64,000 bases of DNA from Deltaproteobacteria bacterium (lineage in GTDB: Bacteria; Desulfobacterota; Binatia; UBA9968; JAJDTQ01), in NCBI GenBank assembly GCA_028818755.1, contig JAPPNF010000108.1, positions 10,259-74,258 on the forward strand, read 5' to 3'. The notes beneath the pieces were generated by a model. That model was given only the letters and a program-made list of their open reading frames with translations. It ran no database searches and was not told the origin of the DNA. How positions within the stretch are numbered: position 1 is the first letter of the stretch; each line of letters opens with the position of its first letter. Both the position numbers and the translations under genes were made by a program. This document shows positions 1-49,336 of the stretch, one piece after another.

Positions 1-191
1 AACGCCAGGGCGTTGTCCCCAAGGGCGTTCACGGCCTCGGCCAGCAGGTAGCCGGAGTCGACGCCGCCGGAGAAACAGACCACCACGTGGCCCATTTCCC
101 GCAGCAGCGCCTGAAGCCCGGTTACCTTTTGCGCCAGTTCGGCGTCCTCGAAAGGGTGATGCCCTAGCTCCGCTCCGTGAGCCCCCCGCAC
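1..191 (-). CDS. PP-loop ATP-pyrophosphatase family protein (LarE/TIGR00268-like), N-terminal fragment; gene runs off the window start
   Basis: Minus-strand translation reads ...ELAQKVTGLQALLREMGHVVVCFSGGVDSGYLLAEAVNALGDNALA; SGGVDS is the PP-loop motif. Start unresolved (GTG at 191 or ATG at 95). Absent from ORF track because truncated. Confidence 0.45.
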   Translation of the reverse strand, partial: MRGAHGAELGHHPFEDAELAQKVTGLQALLREMGHVVVCFSGGVDSGYLLAEAVNALGDNALA

Positions 192-200
192 CCCTCCGTC

Positions 201-220
201 ATTCCCGCGAAAGCGGGAAT
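201..220. repeat. Perfect hairpin ATTCCCGC-GAAA-GCGGGAAT
   Basis: Read directly; lies between GST stop (277) and the PP-loop gene start; no T-tract, so not a classical terminator. Confidence 0.3.
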
Positions 221-276: not shown

Positions 277-840
277 CTACGGCGTCGACTTCACCTTCGG
301 CCGCTCCAGCAGCGAGTCGCGCCAACGCTTGACGTTGGGCAGGTCCTCGGTGATGGACGTCCGGTAGGAGTCCTCACGGGTGAAGAACGGGATGTAGGTG
401 ATGTCCGCCAGCGAGTAGTCGTCGACGATGTAGTCGCGGCCGGCCATGCGTTTCTCCAGCGTCTCCAGGTGCTCCCGCAGGCGCCTCTTGTTCTTCTCGA
501 CCTCGTGGTCGTGGCGGATGTTGCCCGCCGCGGCCTGGAGCCGGGTGTTGCAGAAGTCGATCCAGATCCGCACCTCGGCGCGCTTGGCCAAGTCCTTCGG
601 CATCAGCGACACCTCGGGAAACTTCTCGTCCAGGTACTCGTTGATGACGGCCGACTCGTAGATCACGGTGTCGCCGTCCACCAGCACCGGCACCTTGCCG
701 TACGGGTTGAGCGTGACCAGCTCCTCCGATTTGTTCTTGAGATCGCACTCCACCAAGTCATAAGGGATGTCTTTCTCTGCCAGGACAAGCCTTGTCCTGT
801 GGGCGTACGGTCAAGGGCCGTAAGACAGTAGTCGCAGCAT
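277..840 (-). CDS. Glutathione S-transferase family protein with in-frame TGA (811-813) at the catalytic x-P-Y position; candidate selenocysteine-containing GST (alternatively a disrupted gene)
   Basis: ORF track gives only 277..756 (LNPYGKVPVL, ESAVINEYL GST motifs). The same frame upstream reads ATG(840) MLRLLSYGP-TGA-PYAHRTRLVLAEKDIPYDLVECDL, completing the thioredoxin-like N-domain; AAGGAGG lies 5 nt upstream of ATG 840. Confidence 0.6.
781..799 (-). other. SECIS-like stem-loop CAGGACAA-GGC-UUGUCCUG starting 11 nt downstream of the in-frame UGA
   Basis: Perfect 8-bp (or 7-bp with AGGCU loop) inverted repeat read directly; apical loop with G residues about 19 nt after UGA, which matches bacterial SECIS geometry. 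Confidence 0.45.
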
Positions 841-873: not shown

Positions 874-1260
874 CTACGCGATGATCGGCTGCCGGACCGG
901 AATGTGGCTTGGCCGCCTCGGCACCCGGGTGCGCGGCTTGCCGTCGACCTGCGAGTTGCCCGCGCCGAACAATATCAAGCGCCCCTCGCCCGTGTTACAG
1001 AGCTGATAGGGGTTGCCCGATTCCAGCAGGATCATGTCGTGGGGCTTCAGGACGTATTCGTTCTCCGGCGTCCGCACCGTGCATTCGCCCTCGAGGACCA
1101 TGAAGATGTGGTCGTCGTTCTCGTGGTAGTGCATGTCGTCCTGCATGTTCTCTTCGCAGTTGATGGTCCAGAAGTACGTCAGGTCCGTGCGCCACAACTT
1201 GAGGTGCCGGACGTCGGGGTTGGCCTTGGCCTCCTCGATGGGATTCTTCACCTCGTACAT
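874..1260 (-). CDS. Cupin domain protein
   Basis: 128 aa; HYHENDDHIFMVLEGE ... PHDMILLESGNPYQLCN resembles the two cupin motifs. Confidence 0.65.
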   Translation of the reverse strand: MYEVKNPIEEAKANPDVRHLKLWRTDLTYFWTINCEENMQDDMHYHENDDHIFMVLEGECTVRTPENEYVLKPHDMILLESGNPYQLCNTGEGRLILFGAGNSQVDGKPRTRVPRRPSHIPVRQPIIA

Positions 1261-1293: not shown

Positions 1294-1542
1294 CTACTTG
1301 GACGCCACCAGCTTTCCGTGGGTGCCGTCGCAATACGGCCGGGTTTTCGACCGCCAGCACGCGCAGATGGCCATGGTGCGCGGCTCGTCCACCGTGATCT
1401 CACGGGGCGTGATGGACGTCACCTTGTGCGACCCGTCGCAGAACGGAAAGTTCTGGGTGCGGCCGCACATGCAATAGAACCGGCTCCTGGATTCCTGCCG
1501 GACGATCACCGGCTCGATCAGATCATCATAAGCCAAGCCCAT
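1294..1542 (-). CDS. CDGSH iron-sulfur domain protein (two CDGSH motifs)
   Basis: 82 aa; CMCGRTQNFPFCDGSHK and CACWRSKTRPYCDGTHG motifs. Confidence 0.85.
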   Translation of the reverse strand: MGLAYDDLIEPVIVRQESRSRFYCMCGRTQNFPFCDGSHKVTSITPREITVDEPRTMAICACWRSKTRPYCDGTHGKLVASK

Positions 1543-1703: not shown

Positions 1704-3092
1704 CTACACCAGCAGCCCCATGACCGTACTCGCATCGACGACATGGAGACGGGACTCGGCGTCCTCGGGCGTCCGCTCCGGAACGAACAGCGCTTGGTGC
1801 AGTTCGATGTCCTCGGAGCCCGCGAGGTCCCCGACGTGGACGCGCGTGTCTGTGCCGGAGACCTTGACCGGCTGCGTCGTCCACTTGACCTCGCCCACCA
1901 GCAGTCGCTTCCTGTCCACCGAGCGTGCGACGATGTCGAGTTCCGGGGCGTTGCCGCGCCAGTAGCGTTGTGCGGGCTCCCACGGACCTAGGCGGCCCAG
2001 GGTCGTATCCGAACGGTGCAGCAGGGGCACGATGCCGCGGCACAGCTCTTCCCAGGCGACAGCCTCAAGACTGGTCCGGTAACGTCGCCAGTACGTGAGC
2101 CGCGTCTCCCGGGGTGCGGCCGCCAGGGCCGCCCGATGGGGAGCGACCACCCGGAACCACAGGCGCAGGAACGGATCGTCGATGCGATAGAGGCTGCGCT
2201 TGCCGGACTTGGGTTCGGTGCCGAACGGCGTGTCGCGGCGTACAAGCCCTATCTCCGCGAGCGACGCGAGTGGCCGCGACAGGCTGGAAGCGGGCTTGCC
2301 GAGACGGCCCGCGATCTCGCTGACCCGGTGCGCGCCGTTGCCGATGACGTCCAGCAAGGGCCGCAGCGCCGTGGCCGGAGGAGTCTCCTCTCGCAGCAGC
2401 CGTTCGGGTTCACCATGCAGCGGCCCTGCGGCGTCCAGAACCAGTGCATCCACCGCCGCCTCGATGTCGTTCCCGAAAGGTTCGGCAAGCTCCCAGTAGC
2501 GGGGTATGCCGCCCCACAGTGCATAGGCGCTGACCAGGTCGCGATGCTTGTCGAAGGGAAAGGCCTCGGCGAGGTGTCCCGGCGGCAGGGGACCGACCGC
2601 AAAGGCTTCGGCAGCCCGGCCGTAGAGCGGGGCAGCCCCGTCCAGTATTACGCCGTGCATCATGCGCTGGCTCGATCCGCACACTACAAGGCGAACCCGC
2701 CGCTCCGGTCGGTCCAGCCAGTTCTGCAAGACCCCGGGCAATGTGGGGTCCGCATCGATCAGATAGGGCAGCTCGTCGAGCACCCACGGACCCTCCCACC
2801 CGGAGCGATCGGCGTCCGCCGAAAGCCGCGTCAAAAACGAGCGCCAGTCCGGGTACTCGACGTCGGCGAAGCCGGGGAATCGTTCAGCGACCGCTTCCGC
2901 CAGGTAGCGCCGCTGCACGGGCGGCGCGGACTGATCCGCCACCGTGTACAGGCCGTCGTTACCCCGTGTCCACTCGATGAGCAGCCGCGACTTGCCGATC
3001 CTGCGGCGCCCCCAGATGACCCCAAACGCCCCGGGCCGCGACAGCACATTGTCCAGCCGCTCCATCTCGTGGCGGCGATCAAGGAATTGCAT
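1704..3092 (-). CDS. ATPase (archaeal-ATPase/DUF234 type) with C-terminal PD-(D/E)xK nuclease-like motif
   Basis: 462 aa; Walker A GRRRIGKS, Walker B-like WVLDELPYL, wHTH-like middle, C-terminal ELDIVARS...LLVGEVKWT motif typical of DUF234. Confidence 0.65.
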   Translation of the reverse strand: MQFLDRRHEMERLDNVLSRPGAFGVIWGRRRIGKSRLLIEWTRGNDGLYTVADQSAPPVQRRYLAEAVAERFPGFADVEYPDWRSFLTRLSADADRSGWEGPWVLDELPYLIDADPTLPGVLQNWLDRPERRVRLVVCGSSQRMMHGVILDGAAPLYGRAAEAFAVGPLPPGHLAEAFPFDKHRDLVSAYALWGGIPRYWELAEPFGNDIEAAVDALVLDAAGPLHGEPERLLREETPPATALRPLLDVIGNGAHRVSEIAGRLGKPASSLSRPLASLAEIGLVRRDTPFGTEPKSGKRSLYRIDDPFLRLWFRVVAPHRAALAAAPRETRLTYWRRYRTSLEAVAWEELCRGIVPLLHRSDTTLGRLGPWEPAQRYWRGNAPELDIVARSVDRKRLLVGEVKWTTQPVKVSGTDTRVHVGDLAGSEDIELHQALFVPERTPEDAESRLHVVDASTVMGLLV

Positions 3093-3206
3093 TCATTGAT
3101 TATGCATATTAACATTATGCATTTCAACATAATAAAGGGTTGAATTTATTGATCCAACATCACCGATTCCCTGAACTTCCGGGAACATGATAAGACGACG
3201 GCTGAA
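3093..3206. promoter_or_regulatory. AT-rich divergent control region with direct repeats ATTATGCAT (3099-3107, 3114-3122)
   Basis: Visibly AT-rich island in a GC-rich window, between the divergently oriented ATPase (start 3092) and the AbrB-like gene; each repeat contains the ATGCAT palindrome, 15 bp apart. Confidence 0.35.
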
Positions 3207-3230
3207 ATGCAGGATCGAAAGGACTTCCCC

Positions 3231-3461
3231 ATGGGTGAAACGGTGACCGTGTCCAGTCGCGGTCGAATCACGTTGCCATCGGCGCTGCGCAAGCGCCTCG
3301 ATCTAAAGGCTGGTGACATTCTGACCCTGGAGGATCGTGGCAGCGAGATCGTCCTCAAGCCCAACGTCGCCGGGCATTACAGCGACGAAGAGATCGCGGT
3401 GTGGGACAAGGCGGACAGATTGTCGGACCGTGAGCGCGCACGCATACTTGCAACGTTGTAG
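3231..3461 (+). CDS. AbrB/MazE/SpoVT-family DNA-binding protein (antitoxin-like)
   Basis: MGETVTVSSRGRITLPSALRKRLDLKAGDILTLEDRGSEIVLKP is a typical swapped-hairpin AbrB domain; alternative start ATG 3207. Confidence 0.7.
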   Translation: MGETVTVSSRGRITLPSALRKRLDLKAGDILTLEDRGSEIVLKPNVAGHYSDEEIAVWDKADRLSDRERARILATL

Positions 3462-3551
3462 TCTTGCCGCGCCACTGGAGAAACAACGGTGGCAGACTGC
3501 GCCTACCAAATTCGAGGCCGGCGAATGCCGAGGTGAGAATTGAGCCCACCC

Positions 3552-4763
3552 ATGACGACTGACACCGATCCCAGGACGATTACGCGCGTCGCCCTGCGCA
3601 ACTACAAGAGCATTGCGGCTTGTGACGTCGAGTTGACGCCACTGACTCTCCTCGTGGGTCCCAACGGCTCGGGGAAGAGCAATTTTGTTGATGCTCTGCG
3701 TTTTACCGCACAGGCCTTGCGCTTTACTCCGGATCACGCACTGCACGAGCGGGGCGGGATCAACGAGGTTCGCCGGCGGTCGCGCGGTCACCCCAACCAC
3801 TTCGGCATTCGTCTGGGGTTCCGGTTGGCCGATGCTGCCGGCTGGTACGCCTTTGAAATCGGCGCGCGGCCGAAGGGCCGCTACGTCGTGCGGCGTGAAG
3901 AATGCGTTGTCCTGTCCCATTCCGAAGGGCGGGCGTTTTTCCGGATAGATGACGGACGGCTGTTGTCCACCTCGATCCCGCACCCGCCGCCGACAGGCGG
4001 GAGTGACAGACTCTATCTCCTTCCCGCATCGGCGTATCGAGCGTTCAGGCCGATTTACGATACCCTGTCGGGGATGGGGTTCTACAACCTCAACCCGGAG
4101 CAGATCCGTGAGCTGCAGTCGCCCGACCCCGGGGATCTCCTGACCCATGACGGAAGCAACATCGCGAGTGTCCTCGCCAACCTCAAGTCGCGCTCGCCCG
4201 AGACGGCGGCGCGGGTCGGTCAATACCTCTCGAAGGTTGTGCCGGGAACAGTGGGCATGGAGTCAAAGACGGTGGGACCCAAGTTGACCTTGGAGTTTCG
4301 TCAGGAGGTGCGCGGCGACCCCCACCCGTGGCGATTCCTTGCCCATAATGTGTCGGACGGTACGCTAAGGGTGCTGGGCGTGCTCGTGGCACTCTACCAA
4401 GGTATCGACACGGAGTCGGTGAACGCGAAACTCGTCGGTATCGAGGAACCAGAAGGAGCTCTTCATCCCGCCGCTGCGGGAGTGCTGACGGATGTTCTTC
4501 GCGAGGCGAGTGAGCGTGTACAGGTCGTGGTCACGAGCCACAGCGCGGACTTGCTGGACCGGGATACGATTCCTTCGGATTCCATCTTGGCAGTCATTTC
4601 CGAGAACGGAGAGACGAAGATCGCACGGCTCGATGAAGCGGGCCGTACCGCGCTACGTGACGGGCTATTCACGGCTGGCGAGATGCTCCGCATGAACCAG
4701 CTTCTCCCGGACCCGGAGCAGGCGACACAGGTCCAGTTGGATCTCTTCCGCCAGGAGGAGTGA
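3552..4763 (+). CDS. ABC-type (AAA_15/AAA_21, OLD-N-terminal-like) ATPase
   Basis: LRNYKSIAACDVEL..LLVGPNGSGKSNFVDAL (Walker A), LVGIEEPEGALHP (Walker B), VVVTSHS (H-loop); alternative TTG start at 3540. Confidence 0.75.
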   Translation: MTTDTDPRTITRVALRNYKSIAACDVELTPLTLLVGPNGSGKSNFVDALRFTAQALRFTPDHALHERGGINEVRRRSRGHPNHFGIRLGFRLADAAGWYAFEIGARPKGRYVVRREECVVLSHSEGRAFFRIDDGRLLSTSIPHPPPTGGSDRLYLLPASAYRAFRPIYDTLSGMGFYNLNPEQIRELQSPDPGDLLTHDGSNIASVLANLKSRSPETAARVGQYLSKVVPGTVGMESKTVGPKLTLEFRQEVRGDPHPWRFLAHNVSDGTLRVLGVLVALYQGIDTESVNAKLVGIEEPEGALHPAAAGVLTDVLREASERVQVVVTSHSADLLDRDTIPSDSILAVISENGETKIARLDEAGRTALRDGLFTAGEMLRMNQLLPDPEQATQVQLDLFRQEE

Positions 4764-4766
4764 TCC

Positions 4767-5342
4767 GTGGCGAGAATCGTTTCCATCGTCGAAGGGGATG
4801 GCGAAGTGGAGGCCGTCCCCGCCTTGATCCGACGGATCGGCGAGGAGGTCTCCCCGCTCGATCCGCCCGACGTCTTGAGGCCGATTCGCGTTCGTCGGCA
4901 ACGTTTCGTCAAGCCGGACGAGGTCGAGCGCTATGTCAACTTGGCGGCGATCCGTGGTGATGCCGAGGGCCGCATACTCGTTCTGCTCGACGCGGACAGT
5001 GATTGCCCGGCGGAACTCGGACCGAACATCTTGCAGCGCGCCCGCACGGCGCGGTCCGACCGACGCATCGAAGTGGTTGTGGCGAACAGCGAGTACGAGT
5101 CGTGGTTCATCGCCGCGGTAGATTCCCTGCAAGGAACACGAGGGATTACGGCTGACGTGGCGGTCCCGAAAGACCCGGAATCGATCCGGGGAGCCAAGGC
5201 GTGGCTCCGAGACCGGATGAACGGCCCGTACAGTCCAACGGCCGACCAGGCAACATTCACGACTCGTTTCGACATGGCCTTGGCGCGCCGGCGATCACCG
5301 TCTTTCGACAAGATGTGGCGAGCGGTCAGCGCGCTGTTGTAG
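4767..5342 (+). CDS. DUF4276-like / TOPRIM-like protein, coupled to the upstream ATPase
   Basis: GTG start 3 nt after the ATPase stop, AGGAGGAG 7 nt upstream; IVEGDGEVEAV (acidic Glu), VLLDADSDCP (DxD), NSEYESWFIAA - pattern recalled for DUF4276/Toprim-like proteins. Confidence 0.55.
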   Translation: MARIVSIVEGDGEVEAVPALIRRIGEEVSPLDPPDVLRPIRVRRQRFVKPDEVERYVNLAAIRGDAEGRILVLLDADSDCPAELGPNILQRARTARSDRRIEVVVANSEYESWFIAAVDSLQGTRGITADVAVPKDPESIRGAKAWLRDRMNGPYSPTADQATFTTRFDMALARRRSPSFDKMWRAVSALL

Positions 5343-5596: not shown

Positions 5597-5998
5597 ATGG
5601 GTAGCGAGACGCTCTGGCCGCTGGGCCTGTACTTTCTGATTGCTCTCGTGGTGGCCGGGAGCATGATCGGGCTGTCGTTCGTCCTTGGCGAACGGCATTC
5701 GGATCGTGCCACCGGGCAGCCGTACGAATCCGGCATCGTCTCCACCGGCTCGGCGCGGGTGCGCCTGTCCGTCAAGTTCTACATCGTCGCGATGCTGTTC
5801 GTGATCTTCGATCTCGAAGCGGTCTTCATCTTCGCCTACGCGGTGGCGTACGAGGAGGTGGGATGGCCCGGTTACGCGGGCCTGGTGGTGTTCGTGGTGA
5901 TACTGGTGGTGGCGCTGATCTACGAGTACCGCATGGGCGCGCTCGACTGGGAGCCGGTCCGGCTCAGGATGGCCAAGGCCGGTCGGGAGAAAGGATAG
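5597..5998 (+). CDS. nuoA: NADH-quinone oxidoreductase subunit A
   Basis: 133 aa, three TM helices, PYESG and FDLE motifs; first gene of the nuo operon. Confidence 0.9.
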
Positions 5999-6008
5999 AG
6001 GGACGCCC

Positions 6009-6638
6009 ATGCAATGGTCGTTGTCCAAGCCCAAGCCGGCCGAGCCTGAGAAGGGCGGCTTCGACGAAGCCATACGGAAGCTTCTGATGATGGCCCGCCT
6101 GGAGGACCTAGTCCGGTGGGGGCGTAAGAACTCCATGTGGCCGTTCCATTTCGGGCTGTCCTGCTGCTTCGTGGAGATGGCCACGAGCCTCACGAGCAAG
6201 TTCGACGTGGCCCGCTTCGGCGCCGAGGTCATACGCGGAACCCCCCGCGAGGCTGATGTCATCGTCATCGCGGGCACCCCCTTCATCAAGATGGCGCCCA
6301 TCGTACGGCGGCTCTACGAGCAGATGATGGAGCCCCGCTGGGTCATCTCCATGGGGGCCTGCGCCAACTCCGGGGGGATGTACGACATCTACAGCGTGGT
6401 TCAGGGTGTGGACAAGATCCTGCCGGTGGACGTTTACGTGCCGGGCTGCCCGCCCAGCCCCTGGGCCTTTCTGGAGGCGTTGACGCTGTTGCAGAAGGCC
6501 GTGGGCAACGAACGCCGGCCGCTGAGCTGGATGGTGGGTCCCCAGGGGGTGGAAAAGGTGCCGCTGCCCGCCATGCGCGACGTGAAGCGGCCCGACCGCA
6601 TTCACGCCACCAGCCTGCGTTCCCCGGATGAAGTCTAG
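6009..6638 (+). CDS. nuoB: NADH-quinone oxidoreductase subunit B
   Basis: [37 protein letters not shown] cluster-N2 motifs; collinear with E. coli NuoB including the C-terminal RSPDEV tail. Confidence 0.95.
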
Positions 6639-6736
6639 CCTGGCGTTCCGATGAACACGGTTCCATCGCTTCCCGACACGGATCACGGCCTCCATGCGGC
6701 GCCCGTTCGACAGCAACGGCGCAACGGGTGCGGCTC

Positions 6737-8485
6737 ATGAGTGATGCGCCCGCGGTGGTGACCGAGCTCGAAGGCCGTTTCGGCGCCGACGCCTTCACGG
6801 CGCAGGAGACCCGGTGCGGGTTCCCGACCCTGTGGACGTCGAGGGAACGCCTTGCCGCGGTCCTCAAGTTCCTCAAGACCGAAGTGGAGCGGCCTTTCGG
6901 CACGCTCTACGACCTCACCGCCATCGACGAACGCTTCCGCAGGCAGAGGGACGGGCAGCCCGACAACGATTTCACCGTCCTCTACCACCTGCTCTCCTAC
7001 GGGCGGAACGAGGACCTGTGCATCAAGGTGCCGGTGAGCGACGGCGACGCCTCCCTGCCCACGGCGACGGGCCTGTGGCCCTCGGCCAACTGGTACGAGC
7101 GCGAGGTCTGGGACATGTTCGGCGTCCGCTTCGACGGACACCCTTCGCTACGCCGCATCCTCATGCCGCTCACCTGGGAGGGACACCCTCTGCGCAAGGA
7201 GCACCCGGCCCGGGCCACCGAAATGGGTCCGTTCGAGCTTCCCGACGAGCGTCAGGATAGGGAGCAGGAGGCGCTTCGTTTCCGGCCCGAGGACTGGGGC
7301 ATGAAGCGCACCCACGAGGGCACCGATTTCATGTTCCTCAACGTCGGGCCCCAGCATCCCGGCACCCACGGCGTCATCCGCATCGTTCTGCAGCTCGACG
7401 GCGAGGAGATCGTCGACTGCCTGCCGGAGATCGGCTTCCACCACCGGGGCGCGGAGAAGATGGGGGAGCGGCAGTCCTGGCACTCCTTCATCCCCTACAC
7501 GGACCGCATCGACTACCTGGGCGGGGTCATGAACAACCTGGCCTACGTCCTGTCGGTGGAGCAGTTGGCCGGTATCGACGTCCCCGACCGCGCCCAGGTG
7601 ATCCGCGTGATGATGTCCGAGTTCTTCCGCATCGCCAGCCATCTCGTGTGGTACGGCACCTTCGCCCAGGACGTGGGCTCCCTATCGACGGTCTTCTACA
7701 CCTTCAACGACCGCGAGCGGATCTTCGACATCGTCCAGGCGGTTTGCGGCGGACGCATGCACCCGAGCTGGTTCCGCATCGGCGGGGTGGCCCAGGACCT
7801 GCCCAAGGGCTGGCAGGCCATGGTGCGGGACTTCATCGACTATCTCCCGGACCGGCTCGTGGAATACGACAAGATCGTGATGCAGAACCGCCTCTTCAAG
7901 GCGCGCACCCAGGGTATCGGCGCCTACACCGCGGAGGAGGCCATCGACTGGGGCGTCACCGGACCGGGGCTGCGGGCCTGCGGCTTCGACTGGGACTTCC
8001 GCAAGAAGCGGCCCTACTCGGGATACGACCAGTTCGACTTCGACATCCCCATCGCCCGGAAGGGCGACTGCTACGACCGCGCGGTGGTGCGCATCGAGGA
8101 GATCCGCCAGAGCCTTCGGATCATCGACCAGTGCCTCAAGAACATGCCCCCGGGGCACTACAAGTCGGATCATCCGCTGACGACGCCGCCGCGGAAGGAG
8201 CGCACGATGCACGACATCGAGACGCTCATCAACCACTTCCTGAGCGTGAGCTGGGGGCCGGTGATTCCCGCCGGGGAATCCTTCATGGGCATCGAGGCGA
8301 CCAAGGGAAACAACGGCTACCGGCTGGTGAGCGACGGCGGCACCATTCCCTACCGGGTGCGCATCCGGACCCCGTCCTTCGCCCATATGCAGATGATCCC
8401 GCTGATGAGCCGGGGCACGATGGTGCCGGACCTGCTGGCGATACTGGGGAGCATCGATTTCGTGCTGGCGGACATCGACCGTTGA
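6737..8485 (+). CDS. nuoCD: NADH-quinone oxidoreductase fused subunit C/D
   Basis: N-terminal NuoC ([13 protein letters not shown]) fused to NuoD ([10 protein letters not shown] ... RIRTPSFAH) in one frame; alternative GTG start 6728. Confidence 0.92.
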
Positions 8486-8515
8486 GGTGACGGCGCGGGC
8501 GATGACGAGGTTCCC

Positions 8516-8995
8516 ATGCTGACCGAACAGGAGCGCGAAAGAATCAGGGATGAGGCGGGCCACTACGACTACGCGCAGGCCGCGTGCGTGGAGGCGTTGA
8601 AGATCGTCCAGGAAGGCCACCGCTGGGTGTCGGACGAGCATCTCAAGGAGGTCGCCGAGCTCCTGGACATGAGCCCCGAGGCCCTGGACAGCGTGGCCAC
8701 GTTCTACAACCTCATCTTCCGCAAGCCGGTGGGGGAGAACGTCATTCTTCTGTGCGACAGCGTCAGTTGCTGGATCATGGGCTACGAGGACATCCGCGCC
8801 CACCTCAAGGAGCGGCTCGGGGTCGAGTTGGGCGAGACCACGGCCGACGGCAAGTTCACGCTGCTCCCCATGGCCTGCCTCGGCACCTGCGACCGCGCGC
8901 CGGCCATGATGGTGGGGGGCGACCTCCACCGCAATCTGGACAACGAGAAGGTGGATGAGATACTCGGCCGTTACCGGCAACCGCCGGAGATCTGA
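8516..8995 (+). CDS. nuoE: NADH-quinone oxidoreductase subunit E
   Basis: 159 aa; CDSVSC ... ACLGTCDRAP 2Fe-2S motif. Confidence 0.92.
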   Translation: MLTEQERERIRDEAGHYDYAQAACVEALKIVQEGHRWVSDEHLKEVAELLDMSPEALDSVATFYNLIFRKPVGENVILLCDSVSCWIMGYEDIRAHLKERLGVELGETTADGKFTLLPMACLGTCDRAPAMMVGGDLHRNLDNEKVDEILGRYRQPPEI

Positions 8996-9003
8996 GGCGG
9001 ACT

Positions 9004-10290
9004 ATGGCGAACGGAGCATCCATGGACAGGCCTCTCACCGGGGACCTGAGATCGGACGGCGGCGTGCTGGATCTGGCGGCCTACGAGAAGGTCGGCGGGT
9101 ACGAGGCGTTGCGCAAGGTCGTGAAGGAGATGACCCCGGCCGACGTCCTGCAGGAGGTGACCGATTCCAGGCTTCGGGGCCGTGGCGGCGCGGGCTTTCC
9201 CACGGGCCAGAAGTGGAGCTTCGTGCCCATGGGCGACGACGCGCCGAAGCCCAAGTTCCTCATCGCCAACGCCGACGAGATGGAGCCCGGGACCTTCAAG
9301 GACCGCATGATCCTGGAAGGAAACCCGCATCTCCTCATCGAGGGGATGATCCTGTCGGCGTACACGATCCAGGCCACCAACGGTTACATCTTCCTCCGCT
9401 GGGCCTACAAGGTCGCGGCCGAGCGCATCACCCGGGCGCTGGCCGAGGCGTATGACAAGGGTTACCTGGGGAAGAACATCCTGGGTTCGGACTACAGCTT
9501 CGAGCTGCACCTGCACACCAGCGCCGGCCGCTACATGTGCGGCGAGGAGACCGGGTTGCTCAACGCGCTCGAGGGCAAGCGCGCCAATCCCCGGGCCAAG
9601 CCGCCGTTTCCCCAGGTGAGCGGGTTGTGGGGCAAGCCCACCATCGTGCAGAACGTCGAGACCCTGTGCAACGTGCCGCCGATACTTCGCCACGGCGCGC
9701 AGTGGTATCTCGGGCTGAGCCGCAGCGAGGACGGCGGTACCAAGATCTACGGCGTGAGCGGCAAGGTGCGGCGTCCCGGAGCCTGGGAGCTGCCCCTGGG
9801 CACCACCATGCGGGAGATCCTCGAGCGCCGCGCCCGGGGCATGCGCGAGGGCTACCATTTCCGCGGCGTCCTCCCCGGCGGCGCCTCCACCGACTTCCTG
9901 GTGGAAGAGCACCTGGACACCAAGATGGACTACGGTTCGGTGCAGGCGGCGGGCAGCCGTCTCGGCACCGGCCTGATGATCGTCCTCGACGACAAGACCT
10001 CGGTGGTGGGCATGGTGCTCAACCTGGAGCGCTTCTTCGCCCAGGAGTCCTGCGGCTGGTGCACGCCCTGCCGTGACGGCCTTCCCTGGACGGCGCGGAT
10101 CCTCCAGGGACTGCTGGAGGGCCGGGGGCGGCCCGGCGACCTGGAGCGGCTGGAGATGCAGACCCGGATGATGGGGCCCGGCAATACATTCTGCGCGCTG
10201 GCGCCCGGCGCCATGGAGCCGTTGCAGAGCGCGCTCAAGTATTTTCGCGAGGACTTCGAGAAGCTCATTCCCAAGAGCGACGCAGCGTAA
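9004..10290 (+). CDS. nuoF: NADH-quinone oxidoreductase subunit F
   Basis: GRGGAGFPTG, YMCGEETGLLNALEG, ESCGWCTPCRDG motifs; closely collinear with E. coli NuoF. Confidence 0.95.
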   Translation: MANGASMDRPLTGDLRSDGGVLDLAAYEKVGGYEALRKVVKEMTPADVLQEVTDSRLRGRGGAGFPTGQKWSFVPMGDDAPKPKFLIANADEMEPGTFKDRMILEGNPHLLIEGMILSAYTIQATNGYIFLRWAYKVAAERITRALAEAYDKGYLGKNILGSDYSFELHLHTSAGRYMCGEETGLLNALEGKRANPRAKPPFPQVSGLWGKPTIVQNVETLCNVPPILRHGAQWYLGLSRSEDGGTKIYGVSGKVRRPGAWELPLGTTMREILERRARGMREGYHFRGVLPGGASTDFLVEEHLDTKMDYGSVQAAGSRLGTGLMIVLDDKTSVVGMVLNLERFFAQESCGWCTPCRDGLPWTARILQGLLEGRGRPGDLERLEMQTRMMGPGNTFCALAPGAMEPLQSALKYFREDFEKLIPKSDAA

Positions 10291-10295
10291 CGATC

Positions 10296-12980
10296 ATGGC
10301 TACCATCTACGTCGACGATCGCCCCTACGAGGTGGACCCCGGCAAGAACCTGCTGGAGGAATGCCTCTCGAAGGGTCTGGACCTGCCGTATTTCTGCTGG
10401 CATCCGGCGCTGGGGTCGGTGGGCGCCTGCCGCCAGTGCGCGGTCAAGCAGTACCGGGACGAGAACGACCAGCGCGGCCGCATCGTCATGGCATGCATGA
10501 CCCCGGCCATGGACGGCGCGCGCATTTCCATCAAGGACAAGGACGCGGCGCAGTTCCGCGCCGGCATCATCGAGCTCCTGATGAGCAACCATCCCCACGA
10601 CTGTCCGGTGTGCGACGAGGGCGGCGAGTGCCACCTCCAGGACATGACGGTGATGACCGGCCACAACTACCGCGGCTACCGCTTCGGCAAGCGCACCTTC
10701 CGGAACCAGGAGTTGGGTCCATTCATCAACCACGAGATGAACCGCTGCATCACCTGCTACCGCTGCGTACGGTTCTACCGGGACTATGCCGACGGCAAGG
10801 ACCTGGACGCCTTCGCGTCCCACAACCACGTCTATTTCGGCCGTCACGAGGACGGTGTCCTGGAGAACGAGTTCAGCGGCAACCTGGTGGAGGTCTGCCC
10901 CACCGGCGTCTTCACCGACAAGACGCTCAAGGGACACTACACGCGCAAGTGGGACCTGCAGACGGCGCCGTCGGTGTGCGCCCATTGCAGCCTCGGCTGC
11001 AACACCATCGCGGGCGAGCGTTACGGCCAGCTTCGCCGCATACTCAACCGCTACAACGCCGAGGTCAACGGCTACTTCCTGTGCGACCGGGGACGGTTCG
11101 GCTACGACTTCGTCAACGGCGACCGGCGCCTGCGCCAGCCGCTGTTGCACGGTCAGCCGACGGGCGCGCCGGAGGCGCTGCGCCGGGCGGCCTCGTTGCT
11201 CGGGCGGCAGTCCCGCATCATCGGCATCGGCTCGCCGAGGGCGTCGCTGGAGGCCAACTTCGCGCTCCGCACGCTGGTGGGGGCGAGGAATTTCTTCAGC
11301 GGCATGGCGGCCGGGGAAGACCACCTGGTGGCGCGCATGCTTCGCGCTCTGCGCAGCACCCGTGTGCGGACGCCGTCGTTGCGCGAGGTGGAGTCGGCGG
11401 ACGCGGTCTTCATCCTGGGAGAGGACGTGACCCAGACCGCCCCGCGTCTGGCGCTGGCGGTGCGCCAGGCCGCAAGACAGGCGCCCCGCGCCGAGGCCAT
11501 GCGGCTGCGCATTCCTCGCTGGGACGACGCGGCTCTGCGCGAGGTGATGCAGCAGAAGAAGGGTCCCCTGTACATCGCCACCACCGGCGCGACCAAGCTG
11601 GACGAGGTGGCGACGGCGAGCTGCCGCGGCGCGCCCGACGACGTCGCCCGGCTGGGGTTCGCAGTGGCCCGGGCGCTGGACGACTCCGCCCCGGAGGTGG
11701 AGGGGTTGGCGGACGGCGACCGCGCGCTGGCGGAGGCCGTCGCCGGCGCGTTGCGGGCGGCCGAGCGGCCGGTTGTCATTTCCGGGTCGGGCAGCGGCAG
11801 CGAGGCGGTCATCGACGCCGCCGCGCAGGTGGCGCGGGCCCTGGGGCGGGAACGTACCGCCGATCTCTGTTTCACGGCGCCCGAGTGCAACAGCTTCGGC
11901 CTCGGACTGCTGAACGCCATGAATACCTCGGAAGCTTTCCAGAGGGTCGCCGACGGCCATGTGGACGCGGTGGTGGTGCTCGAGAACGACCTCTATCGCC
12001 GGGCCCCGGGCGCGTTGGTGGACGCGATGCTGGAATCGGCTCAGGTGATCGCCATCGACCACTCCGCCCACAAGACCGCCGAGGGCGCCGCCGTGGCGTT
12101 GCCGGCAGGGTCGTTCGCCGAGACCGAGGGGACCCTGGTGAGCAACGAGGGCCGGGCCCAGCGTTTCTTTCAGGTCTTCGTTCCGGAAGGAGACGTGAAA
12201 CCCGGTTGGAGCTGGCTGATGGAGCTGGCGCAGGCGGCCGGGCGCAATGAGCTCGCGACCCTGGCGTCGCCGGACGATCTTCTGGCCGCCCTGGCCCGGG
12301 CGGTGCCGGTGTTCGCTCCGCTGCCGCAGAACCTGCCCACGGCGGGTTTCCGTGTCAACGGGGAGAAGGTGCCGCGCCAGTCGCCGCGCGCCAGCGGCCG
12401 GACGGCCGTGCAGGCCGACGTCACCGTCCACGAGCCCAAGCCGCCGGCGGACCCCGATTCCCCGCTGGCGTTCTCCATGGAGGGCTATCCCCAGCAGCCG
12501 CCCTCCGCGCTCATAACGCGGTTCTGGGCGCCTGGCTGGAACTCGGTACAGTCGCTGAACAAGTTCCAGTCCGAAGTGGGTGGTGCGCTGACCGGCGGCG
12601 ACCCGGGAATACGCCTCCTGGAGCCCGGCGCCAATGGCGACGCGGCCTACAGCGAGGACATACCAGCGCCCTTCGAGCGGCGCGGTGGCGAGTTCCTGGT
12701 GGTGCCGCTGTATCACATATACGGCTCGGAAGAATCGAGCGCGGCGGCGCCGGCGGTGGCCGAGCGGTGTCCCGAGCCCTACGCCGCGCTGAGCCCGGAA
12801 GACGCACGAACCCTGGAGGTGGAGGAGGGAGCGCTGGTGGAGATCGAGTTCGACCGCGCCCTGTACCGGCTGCCGGCGCGTTTGTCCGCGGGTATGGCCT
12901 CCGGCGTCATTGGGGTGCCGATGGGAATCGCGGTTCAGGGCGTCGACGTTCCGGCCTGGAGCCCGTGCCGCAAGGTTTGA
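10296..12980 (+). CDS. nuoG: NADH-quinone oxidoreductase subunit G (long, E. coli-type)
   Basis: 894 aa; N-terminal 2Fe-2S ([15 protein letters not shown]), [27 protein letters not shown] motifs. Confidence 0.93.
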
Positions 12981-12981
12981 C

Positions 12982-13938
12982 GTGAAGGACGTGGTCTTGC
13001 AGATCGTGGTGGTTCTGGGGGTCCTCAACGCGCCCCTGATCCTGGCCGCGCTGCTCATCTGGCTGGAGCGGCGGTTCCTGGCCCTCCTGCAGGACCGCTA
13101 CGGGCCCAACCGGGTGGGGCCGCTGGGACTCGGCATCGTGCTGGCCGATATGATCAAGATCTTCACCAAGGAGGACTGGATCCCGCCGTTCGCGGATCGG
13201 GCGGTGTTCATCCTGGCGCCGGCGGTCATCGTCGTCACCGGCCTCATGTCCGTGGCGGTGATACCCATCACCGAGACCATCGGCGTCACCGACCTCAACA
13301 TCGGACTGCTGTTCTTCCTCGCCATGTCGTCCATGGGCGTCTACAGCGTGGTGCTGGCGGGCTGGGCCTCCAACAACAAGTACGCCCTGCTGGGCGGACT
13401 GCGGGCGTCGGCGCAGATGGTCAGCTACGAGGTCTTCATGGGCCTCTCGCTCATGGGGGTGGTGCTGCTGGCGGGCTCCTTCAGCCTGCGGGAGATCGTC
13501 GAGGCGCAACGGAACGTGTGGTTCATCGTGCCGCAGTTCCTGGGCTTCGCCATCTTCTTCATCGCCGGGCTGGCCGAGACCCATCGCCTTCCTTTTGATC
13601 TTCCCGAGGCCGAGGCCGAGCTGGTGGCCGGTTTTCACTCCGAGTACTCGGGGATGAAGTTCGGCATGTTCTTCGTCGGCGAGTACGTCGGCGTGACGGT
13701 GATCTCGGCCATGATCGTGACGCTGTTCTTCGGGGGATGGATGGGGCCGGTGCTGCCGGGCATCGTGTGGTTCGGGCTTAAGCTGCTGTTCTTCATCCTG
13801 GTGTTCATCACGCTGCGGGCGGCGCTGCCCCGGCCGCGGTTCGACCAGTTGATGGCTTTCGGCTGGAAGGTGCTCTTGCCGCTGTCGCTGCTCAACCTGG
13901 TGGTGACGGCAGGAGTGTTGCTGCTGTTGAAGACGTGA
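12982..13938 (+). CDS. nuoH: NADH-quinone oxidoreductase subunit H
   Basis: [48 protein letters not shown]; GTG start chosen 1 nt after the nuoG stop (ORF track start 12910 overlaps nuoG). Confidence 0.9.
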
Positions 13939-13953
13939 GGAGTCGCTAATGTC

Positions 13954-13980
13954 GCGGGCGGGTTTTAAACCCGCCCCTAC
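13954..13980. repeat. GC-rich palindromic intergenic repeat (core GGGCGGGTTTnAAACCCGCCC), copy 1
   Basis: gcgggcgggttttaaacccgcccctac read directly, nuoH-nuoI spacer. Confidence 0.8.
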
Positions 13981-13996
13981 GGGAGTCGCCCATGTT

Positions 13997-14024
13997 GTAG
14001 GGGCGGGTTTTAAACCCGCCCGTG
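13997..14024. repeat. GC-rich palindromic intergenic repeat, copy 2
   Basis: gtaggggcgggttttaaacccgcccgtg read directly, nuoH-nuoI spacer. Confidence 0.8.
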
Positions 14025-14034
14025 GGAGTTGCCG

Positions 14035-14550
14035 ATGTTGAGCATGCTGAGGACCATCTGGACGGTGTTCGTGCACCTGTTCCGGCGGCCCGTGACCGTC
14101 CAGTATCCGGAAGAAAAGCCGTACCTGCCGCCCCGTTACCGGGGCCGCATCATACTGTCCCGGGACCCGGACGGCGACGAGCGCTGTGTGGGCTGCTATC
14201 TATGCTCCGCGGCCTGTCCGGTGGATTGCATCGCCCTCCAGGCGGGCGAGCGCGACGACGGCCGGCGCTACCCGGAATGGTTCCGCATCAATTTCTCGCG
14301 CTGCATCTTCTGCGGGCTGTGCGAGGAGGCGTGCCCCACCTACGCCATCCAGCTCACTCCCGATTTCGAGCTGTGCGACTTCGACCGCCAGAGCCTGGTC
14401 TACGAGAAGAAAGACCTGCTGATCGACGGCACCGGCAAGTACCCCGGGTACAATTTCTACCGGGTCGCCGGCCTGGCCATCAGCGGCAAGGACAAGGGGG
14501 CGTCGGAGAACGAGGACAAGCCCGTCGACGTGAAGAGCCTGCTCCCATGA
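14035..14550 (+). CDS. nuoI: NADH-quinone oxidoreductase subunit I
   Basis: Two 4Fe-4S ferredoxin motifs [12 protein letters not shown] and [12 protein letters not shown]; alternative TTG start 14029. Confidence 0.92.
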
Positions 14551-15062
14551 CCATTGTCTACTATCTTGCGGCAGCGATTGCGGTCATCTCGACGGCCATG
14601 GTCATCACCCGGACCAATGCCGTGCACGCGTTGCTGTACATGATCGTCTCGCTGCTGTCGCTGGCGTTGATCTTCTTTACCCTCGGGGCGCCCTTCGTGG
14701 CGGCGCTGGAGGTGATCATCTACGCCGGCGCCATCGTGGTCCTGTTCGTGTTCGTCATCATGATGCTCAATCTCGGCGCCGAGGCCACCGCCCGCGAACA
14801 GCAATGGCTGCAACCCAAGGCGTGGCGCGGCCCGGCGATTCTCTGCGCGATCCTGTTCGTCGAGTTCCTGGTGCTGCTGGTGGTCGAGCCCGGACAGGCG
14901 GGCGCGCCGGCGGCGGTGGGAGTCAAGCGCGTGGGCGCCGCCCTCTACGGTCCGTACGTGCTGGGGGTGGAGCTGGCCGCCATGCTGCTGCTGGCCGGGT
15001 TGGTGGGAGCCTTCCATCTCGGCCGGCGGGTGCCGTCGGACGGCGAGGAGGGTGAGTCCTGA
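14547..15062 (+). CDS. nuoJ: NADH-quinone oxidoreductase subunit J
   Basis: ATGA overlap with the nuoI stop; hydrophobic 171-aa product [32 protein letters not shown]. Confidence 0.88.
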
Positions 15063-15370
15063 TGGCCGCGGTCCCCATGGAGCACGGCCTCGTGCTGGCG
15101 GCGGTGCTGTTCGGGCTGGGCCTGACCGGCGTGCTGGTGCGCCGCAACATCATCTTCGTCCTCCTGTCCCTGGAAATCATGCTCAACGCCGCGGCCCTGG
15201 CCTTCGTCGTGGCCGGCGCGCACTGGGGTCAGGCGGACGGCCAGGTCATGTTCTTCTTCATCCTGGCCATGGCCGCGGCCGAGGTGGCGGTGGGTTTGGC
15301 GCTGGTGGTGCAGATCTACTACCGGTTCAACACCCTGGACGTTGATACCCTGAGCCACATGAGAGGATGA
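15062..15370 (+). CDS. nuoK: NADH-quinone oxidoreductase subunit K
   Basis: 102 aa, [11 protein letters not shown] motif; ATGA-type overlap with nuoJ. Confidence 0.92.
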
Positions 15371-15371
15371 C

Positions 15372-17279
15372 ATGCTCGAGCTGCTGTGGCTGATACCCGC
15401 GCTTCCTCTCCTGGGCTTTGTCGTCCTGATGTTGGCCGGCTCGCGCCTCTCGCGTACCGAGGTCGCCTTCGTCGGCTGCGGCTCGGTCGGCCTGTCCGCG
15501 GCGGTGACCCTGATCGTGGGGCTGAGCTTCATGGCCGCGCCGCCCGCGGGGGCCGCCTTTACCCAGACCCTGTGGGTATGGCTGGACGTGGACGGCTTCC
15601 GTCCCGCCTTCGCCTTCTACCTGGACGCCCTCTCGCTGACGATGATCTTCGTGGTCACCTTCGTGGGTTTCCTCATCCACCTCTACTCGGTCGAGTACAT
15701 GATGGAGGAGGAGGGCTACAGCCGCTTCTTCGCCTACATGAACCTGTTCGTCTGCGCCATGCTCACGCTGCTGCTGGCGGACAACCTGATGCTGCTGCTG
15801 CTCGGCTGGGAGGGCGTGGGACTGTGCAGCTACCTGCTCATCGGCTTCTTCTACAGGGACGAGGCCAACGGCGCGGCCGCGAGCAAGGCCTTCATCGTCA
15901 CCCGGGTGGGCGACACGGCGATGCTGATGGCGCTGTTCCTCCTTTTCGCGGAACTGGGAACGCTGGACATACAGGACCTGCTGCAGCGGGCCGGCGAGGA
16001 GTTCCAGCCGGGCTCGGGGCTGGCGGCGGTGGTGGCGCTGCTCCTGCTGGGAGGGGCCGTGGGCAAGTCGGCCCAGCTTCCGCTCCAGACCTGGCTGCCG
16101 GACGCTATGGCGGGCCCCACGCCGGTGAGCGCCCTCATCCACGCGGCCACCATGGTGACGGCGGGCGTCTATCTCATCGCGCGCACCCACGCGCTGTTCG
16201 TGCTGGCCCCGCAGGTGTTGACGCTGGTGGCGGTGATCGGGACGCTGACGCTGCTGATGGCGGGCTTCGCGGCGCTGGTGCAGACCGACATCAAGCGCGT
16301 GCTGGCCTATTCCACCATCAGCCAGATCGGCTACATGTTCCTGGCCCTGGGGGTGGGCGCGTGGTCGGCGGCGCTGTTCCACTTCATGATCCACGCCTTT
16401 TTCAAGGCGCTGCTGTTCCTGGGCGCGGGCGCGGTCATCATGTGCCTGCACCACCAGCAGGACATGTACCGCATGGGCGGCCTGCGCCGGCTGATGCCGT
16501 TCACCTTCTGGTGCTTCCTCATCGGCAGCGGCGCGCTGGCGGCCATCCCCGTGGTCACCGCGGGTTTCTACAGCAAGGACCTGATCATCTGGAACGCCTA
16601 CAACTCAGACATCGGCGGCGTGTGGCTGTGGGCCGGGGCCCTGGCGGGGGCGCTGCTCACTTCCATCTACACCTTCCGCATGGTGTTCCTGACCTTCTTC
16701 AGGGACGCCACCGAGTGGGTGAAGAAGCTACTGCCGATCCACCAGCCCGGTCCGTGCGTCCATATCCCGCTCGGTGTGCTGGCGGTCCTTTCGATCGCCG
16801 GCGGCTTCATCGAGCTGCCCCACACCATGGGCAAGCTCACCCTGTTTTCCGACTTCCTGAACACCGCGTTGCCCGAATTCCACGGCGCCCACGCGAGCTA
16901 CGGCACCGAGTTCCTGTTCGAGCTCATGGCCGCGGTCGCCTCCATCGGCGGCATCTACCTGGTGTGGGTCCTGGTGATGGGGCCTGCCCACCACATGCAG
17001 CGCATCGTCGCGCTGCCCTGGGCGCCCGCGCTGGAGCGCCTGTGGCTTTCCGGCTGGGGCTTCGACCGGCTCTATGACGTGGTCTTCGTGCAGCCCTACC
17101 TGTGGTGCGCACGGGTCAACAAGAGCGACTTCATCGATGCCTTCTATCGCGCCACGGCCTTCGTCACCGAGATGCTGCACTTCGTCGTCAGCCTGACCCA
17201 GACCGGCGCGGTGCGGTGGTATGCCACCGGCATCGCCGTGGGGGCGGTGGCGACCGTGGGACTGGTGATCCTGCTATGA
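15372..17279 (+). CDS. nuoL: NADH-quinone oxidoreductase subunit L
   Basis: 635 aa antiporter-like subunit; GWEGVGLCSYLLIGF, KSAQLPLQTWLPDAMAGPTPVSALIHAATMV. Confidence 0.93.
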   Translation: MLELLWLIPALPLLGFVVLMLAGSRLSRTEVAFVGCGSVGLSAAVTLIVGLSFMAAPPAGAAFTQTLWVWLDVDGFRPAFAFYLDALSLTMIFVVTFVGFLIHLYSVEYMMEEEGYSRFFAYMNLFVCAMLTLLLADNLMLLLLGWEGVGLCSYLLIGFFYRDEANGAAASKAFIVTRVGDTAMLMALFLLFAELGTLDIQDLLQRAGEEFQPGSGLAAVVALLLLGGAVGKSAQLPLQTWLPDAMAGPTPVSALIHAATMVTAGVYLIARTHALFVLAPQVLTLVAVIGTLTLLMAGFAALVQTDIKRVLAYSTISQIGYMFLALGVGAWSAALFHFMIHAFFKALLFLGAGAVIMCLHHQQDMYRMGGLRRLMPFTFWCFLIGSGALAAIPVVTAGFYSKDLIIWNAYNSDIGGVWLWAGALAGALLTSIYTFRMVFLTFFRDATEWVKKLLPIHQPGPCVHIPLGVLAVLSIAGGFIELPHTMGKLTLFSDFLNTALPEFHGAHASYGTEFLFELMAAVASIGGIYLVWVLVMGPAHHMQRIVALPWAPALERLWLSGWGFDRLYDVVFVQPYLWCARVNKSDFIDAFYRATAFVTEMLHFVVSLTQTGAVRWYATGIAVGAVATVGLVILL

Positions 17280-36502: not shown

Positions 36503-36504
36503 GG

Positions 36505-38175: not shown

Positions 38176-38199
38176 CGGGTGGCGGCTGCGAGCGTGAAT

Positions 38200-38233
38200 A
38201 AAAAGCCGCGCCGGTTTCCCGGCGCGGCTTTTT
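38200..38233. terminator. Bidirectional rho-independent terminator AAAAAGCCGCGCCGG-TTTC-CCGGCGCGGCTTTTT
   Basis: Perfect 10-bp GC stem flanked by an A-tract and a T-tract, between convergent genes ending at 38175 (+) and 38253 (-). Confidence 0.85.
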
Positions 38234-38252
38234 GTTCGCTGAAGTTTGGCGA

Positions 38253-39794: not shown

Positions 39795-39841
39795 ATCGCA
39801 ACTCCTTTCCGTTCGGGTCCTTGGTTCTTCGGCCGTTCTTC

Positions 39842-40678: not shown

Positions 40679-40745
40679 GATTCCCTCGCGATGGAGTTGA
40701 CTCGTGGGGTGTGTCGCATGTGAAACTCAGAACACCGCCATGCCC

Positions 40746-41834: not shown

Positions 41835-41864
41835 GCCTGCATCTCCATGACCAGCCTTGTGGCG

Positions 41865-41890
41865 AGGGGCGGGCTTGAAACCCGCCCCTG
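41865..41890. repeat. GC-rich palindromic intergenic repeat, copy 3
   Basis: gaggggcgggcttgaaacccgcccctg between the SBP stop (41905) and the ADH start (41834). Confidence 0.75.
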
Positions 41891-41904
41891 TTCGAAAGCC
41901 GCCT

Positions 41905-43443: not shown

Positions 43444-43501
43444 TGAGCCATCCCCCTTTTGGAATGCGGGCCTCTCCCCACCGTGGAGGAGGACTTGGTT
43501 G

Positions 43502-45034: not shown

Positions 45035-45214
45035 TGAGCCTTCCTCCTTTCGGAATGCGGACCCAGTGCGGTCCGTGTCCCGCGATACATATGAAATTGT
45101 CGTGTCGGAAGTCAACCCTGAGCGCCTCCTGATTGACGTTGCACCGGCGCGGCTATATTCATGGATCTGCGCCGCCGACAACGGCATCCCGGCAACTACT
45201 TGCGGAGGTTCTCA

Positions 45215-46858: not shown

Positions 46859-46878
46859 ACTGCGCGCGAGGCACGGGC

Positions 46879-46905: not shown

Positions 46906-46927
46906 GCATCTCGTTGGTTGATTCCGC

Positions 46928-49330: not shown

Positions 49331-49336
49331 GGCTAC

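Follow-up and report, generated by a model that had tools for sequence, protein, structure and literature searches.

A stretch of 64,000 nucleotides from a Deltaproteobacteria bacterium placed by GTDB in the Binatia (GenBank assembly GCA_028818755.1, contig JAPPNF010000108.1, positions 10,259 to 74,258 of the forward strand), here called the window, carries on its minus strand (277..840) a gene for a protein of the glutathione S-transferase (GST) type, in which an in-frame UGA codon occupies the catalytic position. Judging from the comparison with its relatives, this is very probably a genuine selenocysteine-encoding GST gene, in which a hairpin just downstream of the UGA codon would serve as a bacterial selenocysteine insertion sequence (SECIS) element. 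A candidate selenoprotein at this place had been put forward from the letters of the window and a list of its open reading frames (hereafter, the original prediction), and all the coordinates proposed there, from the Shine-Dalgarno sequence, ATG 840 and TGA 813-811 to the hairpin at 799-781 and the stop codon at 279-277, are correct.

From the point of view of its layout, the complete coding sequence consists of 187 codons followed by TAG (279-277), with the predicted selenocysteine (Sec) at codon 10. The minus-strand frame opens with ATG (840-838) CTG CGA CTA CTG TCT TAC GGC CCT, meets TGA at 813-811 and goes on with CCG TAC GCC CAC AGG ACA AGG CTT GTC CTG up to the TAG, so that the conceptual product, of 187 residues, is MLRLLSYGP-U-PYAHRTRLVLAEKDIPYDLVECDL... 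As had been anticipated, a Shine-Dalgarno sequence AAGGAGG (852-846, minus strand) precedes the ATG with a 5-nt spacer (ACGAC), and sequences of the GGAGG type are found at a similar spacing in most orthologues. The list of open reading frames reports 277..756 only, starting at an internal TTG (754..756, minus strand) that is not preceded by any Shine-Dalgarno sequence and that is also the wrong start chosen by public gene callers; translation of the full frame bears out the longer product. Elsewhere in the window TGA is the ordinary stop codon of about 20 other genes, among them the three that the original prediction had named, and therefore the genetic code of the window is the standard one and a global recoding is excluded.

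The in-frame TGA is not a peculiarity of a single assembly. The orthologue set comprised 113 sequences spanning about 55-98% protein identity, 34 of them derived from genomes (33 loci from genome collections plus the window) and 79 from usable metagenome loci. The genome-collection loci come, with few exceptions, from metagenome-assembled genomes (MAGs) labelled Candidatus Binatia or "delta proteobacterium", many of them on closed chromosomes; the complete Binatia chromosomes carrying the gene include OY762897.2, OZ220712.1, OZ241976.1, OZ243916.1 and OY729432.1. TGA is present at the identical codon in all the genome-derived (34/34) and all the metagenome-derived (79/79) orthologues, with a start codon located 7-9 codons upstream of it in each of the 113 sequences. 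In the 34 genome-derived sequences the frames are otherwise intact over 186-187 codons, with one variant of 192 codons. Across the whole set, the seven codons upstream of the UGA show synonymous differences (pS) of 0.63 against nonsynonymous differences (pN) of 0.25, and the three codons that follow it, encoding P-Y-A, give a pS of 0.57 and a pN of 0.003. These values indicate that both flanks of the UGA are translated in this frame and kept under purifying selection, which excludes a pseudogene, a sequencing error and a leader peptide followed by a truncated GST. Copies of other kinds are also found in these bacteria: a second, partial copy (residues 72-176, 80% identity) lies at L034 (OZ220710.1, 4198598-4204911) in the same genome as the Sec-GST locus L015, and other Binatia MAGs (L036/L037) possess a paralogue of 38% identity whose catalytic position is taken by Ser (S-P-N).

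The second element of the predicted recoding signal is the hairpin CAGGACAA-GGC-TTGTCCTG (781..799, minus strand), formed by a 5' arm at 799-792, a GGC loop at 791-789 and a 3' arm at 788-781. Folded alone it is a perfect stem of 8 bp closed by a 3-nt loop, with a free energy of -9.2 kcal/mol; its conserved core corresponds to the inner 6-7 bp. An 11-nt spacer, CCGTACGCCCA (800..810, minus strand), separates the UGA from the base of the hairpin, which begins exactly 11 nt past the TGA, and the distance from the UGA to the loop is 19 nt, in agreement with the geometry that had been predicted. The minimal SECIS element of Escherichia coli fdhF is reported to have the same 11-nt spacing. The likeness to elements of the fdhF type extends to the location of the hairpin inside the coding region right after the UGA and to its small loop starting with G-G, whereas no sequence similarity with the E. 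coli elements is seen and the stem is perfect, without a bulged U. The published consensus model of bacterial SECIS (bSECIS) elements, due to Zhang and Gladyshev, prescribes a loop of 3-9 nt with G at its first two positions, a stem of 4-16 bp, a loop located 16-37 nt from the UGA and a minimum free energy of -7.5 kcal/mol or lower (PMC13188914), and the window hairpin falls within each of these ranges.

Selection on the hairpin can be read from the codons that form it. Codons 14-20, CAC AGG ACA AGG CTT/ATT GTC CTG, are almost invariant at synonymous sites: the entropy of their third positions, 0.10 bits where the median of the gene is 0.92, is the lowest of any real 7-codon stretch, and their pS is 0.079 as compared with 0.57-0.76 in the flanks (113 sequences). 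Several of the codons thus retained are rare in the window, AGG accounting for 6.8% of Arg codons, ACA for 2.6% of Thr codons and CTT for 4.7% of Leu codons. Stem pairing reaches 97-98.7% across the alignments, and the two Gs of the loop are invariant in 115 sequences. Within the clade, the pair 21-27 occurs as A-U, as U-A (L152) and as G-C (L159), besides four U.U mismatches; at the two outermost positions pairing fails in some sequences. When two marine sequences from the Sargasso Sea are added to the alignment, three of the six core pairs show compensatory changes and 98.7% of the cells are paired; the resulting covariation score was reached by none of 500 shuffles, and controls with slid positions drop to 33-51% pairing. 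The same helix is predicted independently by RNAalifold. A lower stem of GCC with GGC, which appears in single-sequence folds, was rejected, since its columns vary without compensation.

A natural control is offered by a cluster of proteins of at least 90% identity (cluster 6) which holds both TGA alleles (L168, L169) and TGC alleles (L165, L166, L167). In the TGA alleles, which look truncated as annotated, the hairpin region reads AGG ACA AGG ATT GTC CTG and the hairpin is kept (-14.1 kcal/mol). In the TGC alleles, the corresponding codons are AGA ACA CGG/CGA ATC GTT/GTC CTA/CTC and the hairpin is lost (-2.8 to -6.6 kcal/mol); these alleles differ among themselves at synonymous sites, and each one is a full-length, single uninterrupted gene of 186 codons. 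The hairpin is therefore retained only together with the UGA codon, as expected for a SECIS element, and this argues against a general constraint on mRNA structure or on the protein-coding sequence. Three of the four refuting conditions named in the original prediction were examined, and none of them refutes the interpretation; for the hairpin in particular, agreement with the published bSECIS ranges goes together with covariation and with erosion where the codon has changed from UGA to UGC.

As regards the protein, profile searches were performed with U replaced by C. The Pfam models GST_N, GST_N_2 (80 bits), GST_N_3 (73 bits) and GST_C (42 bits) are all matched above their cut-offs, and all the NCBIfam equivalog cut-offs are far from being reached, the best score being that of SspA (99.7 bits against a 314-bit cut-off), on which ground an identity as SspA was rejected. 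The best solved relatives are SspA-like bacterial GSTs with a CPF motif (4qq7, 6v91 and 4hoj; E ~1e-27 to 1e-30), after which come the tau GSTs of plants and the omega GSTs of humans. The N-terminal 56 residues find their best match in human GSTO2, with an ungapped alignment that sets residue 10 on Cys32; around this position the window protein reads U-P-Y-A-H-R-T-R-L-V-L and GSTO2 reads C-P-Y-S-H-R-T-R-L-V-L. The UGA also aligns on the Cys of the CPF motif of Burkholderia 4qq7. The placement of the UGA on the x of an x-P-Y/F catalytic motif, as originally proposed, is borne out by the ungapped alignment on Cys32, and homologues do hold Cys in that column: it is encoded by TGC in L165-L167 and by TGT in L035, and is represented by Cys32 of GSTO2 and by the CPF motif of 4qq7. 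AlphaFold modelling of P0037, the closest Cys homologue (predicted local distance difference test score, pLDDT, 79), puts the residue between a strand (E2-5) and a helix (H10-21), and the Foldseek matches of the model are all GSTs, at a template modelling (TM) score of about 0.5 and with moderate confidence; what the model confirms is limited to the fold and to the location of the residue after a strand and before a helix. In the window, the nine codons MLRLLSYGP (814..840, minus strand) encode strand beta-1 according to this model, and their pS and pN over the 113 sequences show that they are translated under purifying selection; the in-frame TGA (811..813, minus strand), found in 113/113 orthologues, is the predicted Sec codon of the U-P-Y motif.

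On this basis, the gene is best explained as encoding a GST of the cytosolic type whose catalytic residue, at the N-terminal end of helix alpha-1, is predicted to be Sec, and a mechanism can be proposed. Translation would start at ATG 840 behind the strong Shine-Dalgarno sequence, and once the UGA (813-811) occupies the A site the hairpin, which begins 11 nt further on, would stand at the mRNA entrance of the ribosome. Its loop, GGC, beginning with G-G, would then recruit the complex of SelB, GTP and Sec-tRNA(Sec), and Sec would be inserted at position 10 instead of termination taking place. We infer that the inserted residue is Sec and that SelA, SelB, SelC and SelD exist in the source organism. 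The most likely activity, by analogy, is a glutathione (GSH)-dependent thiol-transferase or reductase reaction rather than classical conjugation, because the surroundings of the Sec are nearly identical to the active site of the omega class; catalysis might proceed via a selenenyl-sulfide intermediate, enzyme-Se-S-G, formed with GSH.

Several observations weigh against the assignment and have to be set beside the evidence described so far. In the first place, selA, selB, selD and tRNA-Sec were looked for, with ARAGORN and, by tblastn, with E. coli SelA, SelB and SelD, in the 64 kb of the window and in the 834 kb of 160 related loci, and none was found. Consistently, the Sec machinery is not among the 40 Pfam-annotated genes of the window, ARAGORN reports no tRNA at all in the window, and no sel genes were found in the 10-kb neighbourhoods of the Sec-GST gene in two further genomes. 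The absence of sel genes from the window and the 160 loci is uninformative, because what was searched amounts to a very small fraction of the genomes in question. Furthermore, the window and the related loci yielded no other selenoprotein gene that would attest independently to the use of Sec by the organism: an all-against-all comparison of conserved in-frame TGAs, covering the window and the 160 related loci, leaves the GST cluster alone. The literature search, in turn, found no report linking Binatia/Binatota with selenocysteine. As for the hairpin, five of the eight stem pairs never vary within the clade, so that the structural support there is limited, consisting mostly of conservation and not of covariation. 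For the alignment, two Sargasso sequences were picked because they share the register of the window hairpin, and the other two known sequences from that source fold differently. The 66-nt stretch is no more stable than shuffled sequence (z = +0.45), and 7 of the 1459 TGA trinucleotides of the window (0.5%), whose G+C content is 66%, are followed, in bSECIS geometry, by a perfect Watson-Crick stem of 8 bp or more. Taken alone, the hairpin is accordingly weak evidence, and it is only by comparison with other sequences that it goes far beyond chance. Finally, Rfam gives no match to the hairpin, either over the whole window at the gathering score or over 600-950 at E <= 10; this null is not a rejection and means merely that none of the curated families fits.

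Other candidates that emerged from the scan of the window did not hold. Two split reading frames, at 29354 and 56902, were rejected since their upstream halves are junk, and the other sites combining a TGA with a hairpin were rejected as selenoprotein genes, being terminators or off-frame. The strongest match of the latter kind is a perfect hairpin of 13-15 bp (38175-38253), located after genuine stops, between the convergent stop codons of an amidohydrolase gene (36499-38175, plus strand) and an SBP_bac_5 gene (38253-40049, minus strand), and it looks like a bidirectional terminator.

Among the alternative explanations, the one that survives best is that the UGA is read through without Sec, by a suppressor or near-cognate tRNA inserting Trp, Cys or Gly, with the hairpin acting as a generic stimulator. 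In its favour, no Sec machinery was found for this lineage in the window and the related loci, a C placed after UGA makes for a leaky stop, and JGI gene callers give Trp at the Sec codon in some copies (P0027, P0154, P0156). The hairpin, however, fits the specific bSECIS geometry with a loop GG invariant in 115 sequences, and the position is a textbook site of Sec/Cys exchange, with published GST selenoproteins bearing U there. Trp or Gly in place of the catalytic Cys would destroy the thiol chemistry, yet the site is strongly constrained, while if Cys were the product a TGC codon without any hairpin would suffice, as the Cys alleles show. The Trp of the JGI proteins is presumably an artefact of an alternative translation table, the fetched orthologues having TGA in 113/113 cases. 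Taken together, we consider readthrough of this sort improbable.

A still less probable explanation, to which we attach very little weight, assumes two products, namely a 9-residue leader ending at the UGA and a truncated GST re-initiated at an internal TTG or GTG, in which case the hairpin would serve in regulation or coupling. It agrees with the output of gene callers, which all give truncated proteins (158-159 aa or 108 aa). Against it, the stretch of 18 codons that runs from the UGA to the internal start ranks among the most conserved of the protein and varies synonymously (P-Y-A, pN 0.003 and pS 0.57), so that it must be translated in this frame; besides, the internal start lacks a Shine-Dalgarno sequence, the Cys alleles are uninterrupted genes of 186 codons, and a truncated product would miss strand beta-1, the catalytic residue and helix alpha-1. 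Lastly, although a single in-frame stop in one assembly normally suggests a pseudogene or a sequencing or assembly error, a doubt that the original prediction had itself raised, this possibility is practically negligible and is refuted by the comparative data, since 113 independent assemblies share the TGA, among them complete long-read chromosomes and the output of many different projects, and purifying selection acts on their unbroken frames.

Selenoproteins of this kind are already known. GST-like selenoproteins have been listed since 2005, when four sequences were reported from the Sargasso Sea by Zhang, Fomenko and Gladyshev (PMC1088965); the Global Ocean Sampling (GOS) survey counted 12 Sec against 1,036 Cys sequences in the family (PMC2398784), and a GST selenoprotein family is listed in reviews of 2022 and 2026 (PMC9312934, PMC13188914). 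The statement of the original prediction that such proteins came from marine surveys is correct (PMC1088965, PMC2398784). According to the reviews, the functions of nearly all the selenoproteins identified by bioinformatics are largely uncharacterized (PMC9312934, PMC13188914). All four Sargasso GST selenoproteins carry U-P-[WY] at the start of helix alpha-1, as does the window protein (PMC1088965). Two of them, AACY01575427 and AACY01615117, place their hairpin in the codon register of the window gene, with loops GGC and GGA; their stems, GAGCUA/UAGCUC and GUGCCA/UGGCAC respectively, differ from that of the window, which is longer. The sharing of the register with such distant marine relatives suggests that the SECIS element is old within this GST clade. 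The window protein is 34% identical over 131 aa and 44% identical over 50 aa to the Sargasso members, and because of these low values the Binatia GST appears to be a different subfamily. The habitats differ as well, the window branch belonging to a different, mainly terrestrial phylum and coming from Binatia-type MAGs of soil, sediment and sponge and the Sargasso/GOS family from marine plankton; moreover, the GOS family is mostly Cys-containing, while the window branch is dominated by Sec, with TGA in 113/113 fetched loci. About 119 of the best 120 clusters of the protein database look truncated.

Among the GSTs with known structure, the omega class (human GSTO1 and GSTO2; PDB 3q18, 1eem) has a nearly identical active-site stretch, with an overall E of ~1e-20. 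The proline-rich N-terminal extension of about 20 residues typical of omega GSTs is missing in the window protein, where only nine residues precede the Sec and residue 2 aligns with chain residue 24, and for this reason an identity as a canonical omega GST was rejected. The two also differ in that the window protein is bacterial, has 187 residues and would contain Sec, whereas omega GSTs are of about 240 residues and contain Cys. The SspA-like GSTs (Burkholderia 4qq7 and 6v91, Neisseria RegF 4hoj) give the best full-length matches (E ~6e-30) and the top Foldseek matches, and their Cys aligns with the U of the window protein, which stays below the SspA cut-off; nothing in the analysis of the window protein suggests a role in binding to RNA polymerase. 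A GST-like gene of E. coli K-12, yibF (L161, NC_000913.3, 3761347-3761955), adjoins selA-selB, which may be a coincidence; its product, at 22% identity to the window protein, carries Ser instead of Cys in the aligned column.

All the public copies examined are truncated, those of 158-159 aa being the output of gene callers of the Prodigal type. Among the best 120 matches listed from the protein database, the close relatives, down to about 60% identity, are almost all of 158-159 residues, corresponding to 84-85% of the query, and are cut at the same internal start as the open reading frame reported for the window. NCBI records hold 108-aa fragments named "glutathione binding-like protein" or "GST family protein", and NCBIfam is without a specific model for the Sec-GST family. 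Because of this truncation, at 158-159 aa or 108 aa, the whole enzyme family appears without its catalytic half. A few JGI/ENA proteins (P0027, P0154-P0156, P0164) show Trp at the Sec position (...YGPWPYAHRTR...), presumably through the use of an alternative translation table on short contigs, and P0049 is a frame-shifted assembly variant. What is known, then, is the kind of GST-like selenoprotein; what is new is a large, Sec-dominant Binatia branch from soil and sediment, truncated in public records.

The GST gene is the third of a small cluster on the minus strand, which starts with a gene for a CDGSH iron-sulfur protein (1294..1542; Pfam zf-CDGSH, two copies of the motif) and continues with a Cupin_2 gene (874..1260, Pfam) directly upstream of the GST. 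This CDGSH-cupin-GST arrangement is conserved in L001-L021. Downstream of the GST lies the start of a gene for a PP-loop sulfur transferase of the LarE type (1..125, minus strand), which runs off the window and was recognized by tblastn to a neighbour gene in locus L164; that neighbour (10498-11301, 267 aa) scores 328 bits on TIGR00268, LarE, an ATP-dependent sacrificial sulfur transferase. A gene of the LarE type is found downstream of the Sec-GST in 26 related Binatia-type loci. More distant Sec-GST lineages have other neighbours, and the cluster is a feature of the closer Binatia clade and not of the whole Sec-GST family. Between the GST and the LarE-like gene, about 60 nt past the GST stop, there is an 8-bp inverted repeat, ATTCCCGC-TTTC-GCGGGAAT (201-220, minus strand), which has no T-run after it and is absent from the terminator scan.

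The remainder of the window contains genes of other kinds. Beyond the CDGSH gene, a variable island (1704-5342), present in only some related genomes, precedes the nuo operon; it includes an ATPase_2/DUF234/HTH gene (1704-3092, minus strand) and, on the plus strand (3540-5342), an AbiEii-like ATPase gene (AAA_21/AAA_15) followed by DUF4276, and these AAA ATPase island genes may be a pair of the defence type. The nuo (complex I) operon is complete (5597-20283), with a fused 30-kDa and 49-kDa NuoCD subunit encoded at 6728-8485. Further Amidohydro_1 and Amidohydro_3 genes, together with three SBP_bac_5 binding proteins, occupy 34910-50458. At least six Amidohydro_2 paralogues are found within 13 kb (50595-63341), interleaved with thiolase-like genes, ChsH2-type OB-fold genes and a class I fumarate hydratase gene; a seventh open reading frame (61106-62212) was outside the Pfam scan.

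A broader reading of these data can be advanced only tentatively, and as a whole we regard it as falling somewhat short of probable. It would combine a first evidence of Sec decoding in the Binatota, an unusual, Sec-dominant and mainly terrestrial subfamily of omega-like GSTs, an ancestral state with Sec and a selenium redox module. The ancestral state is suggested by the SECIS register, which the window branch shares with the marine GST selenoproteins; on this view, Sec-to-Cys reversion would have given rise to the rare Cys forms only recently, their SECIS element being caught in decay, and CDGSH, cupin, Sec-GST and LarE could form a dedicated module for selenium-dependent redox reactions or sulfur transfer.

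The coexistence, within 90% identity, of UGA alleles with the hairpin and UGC alleles without it provides an unusually clean illustration of the coupling between SECIS and UGA. Moreover, an omega-GST active site that naturally contains Sec would allow Sec and Cys to be compared directly in thiol-transferase chemistry. For the organisms themselves, bacteria of the Binatia type that abound in soils, sediments and sponges, the gene implies a Sec pathway.

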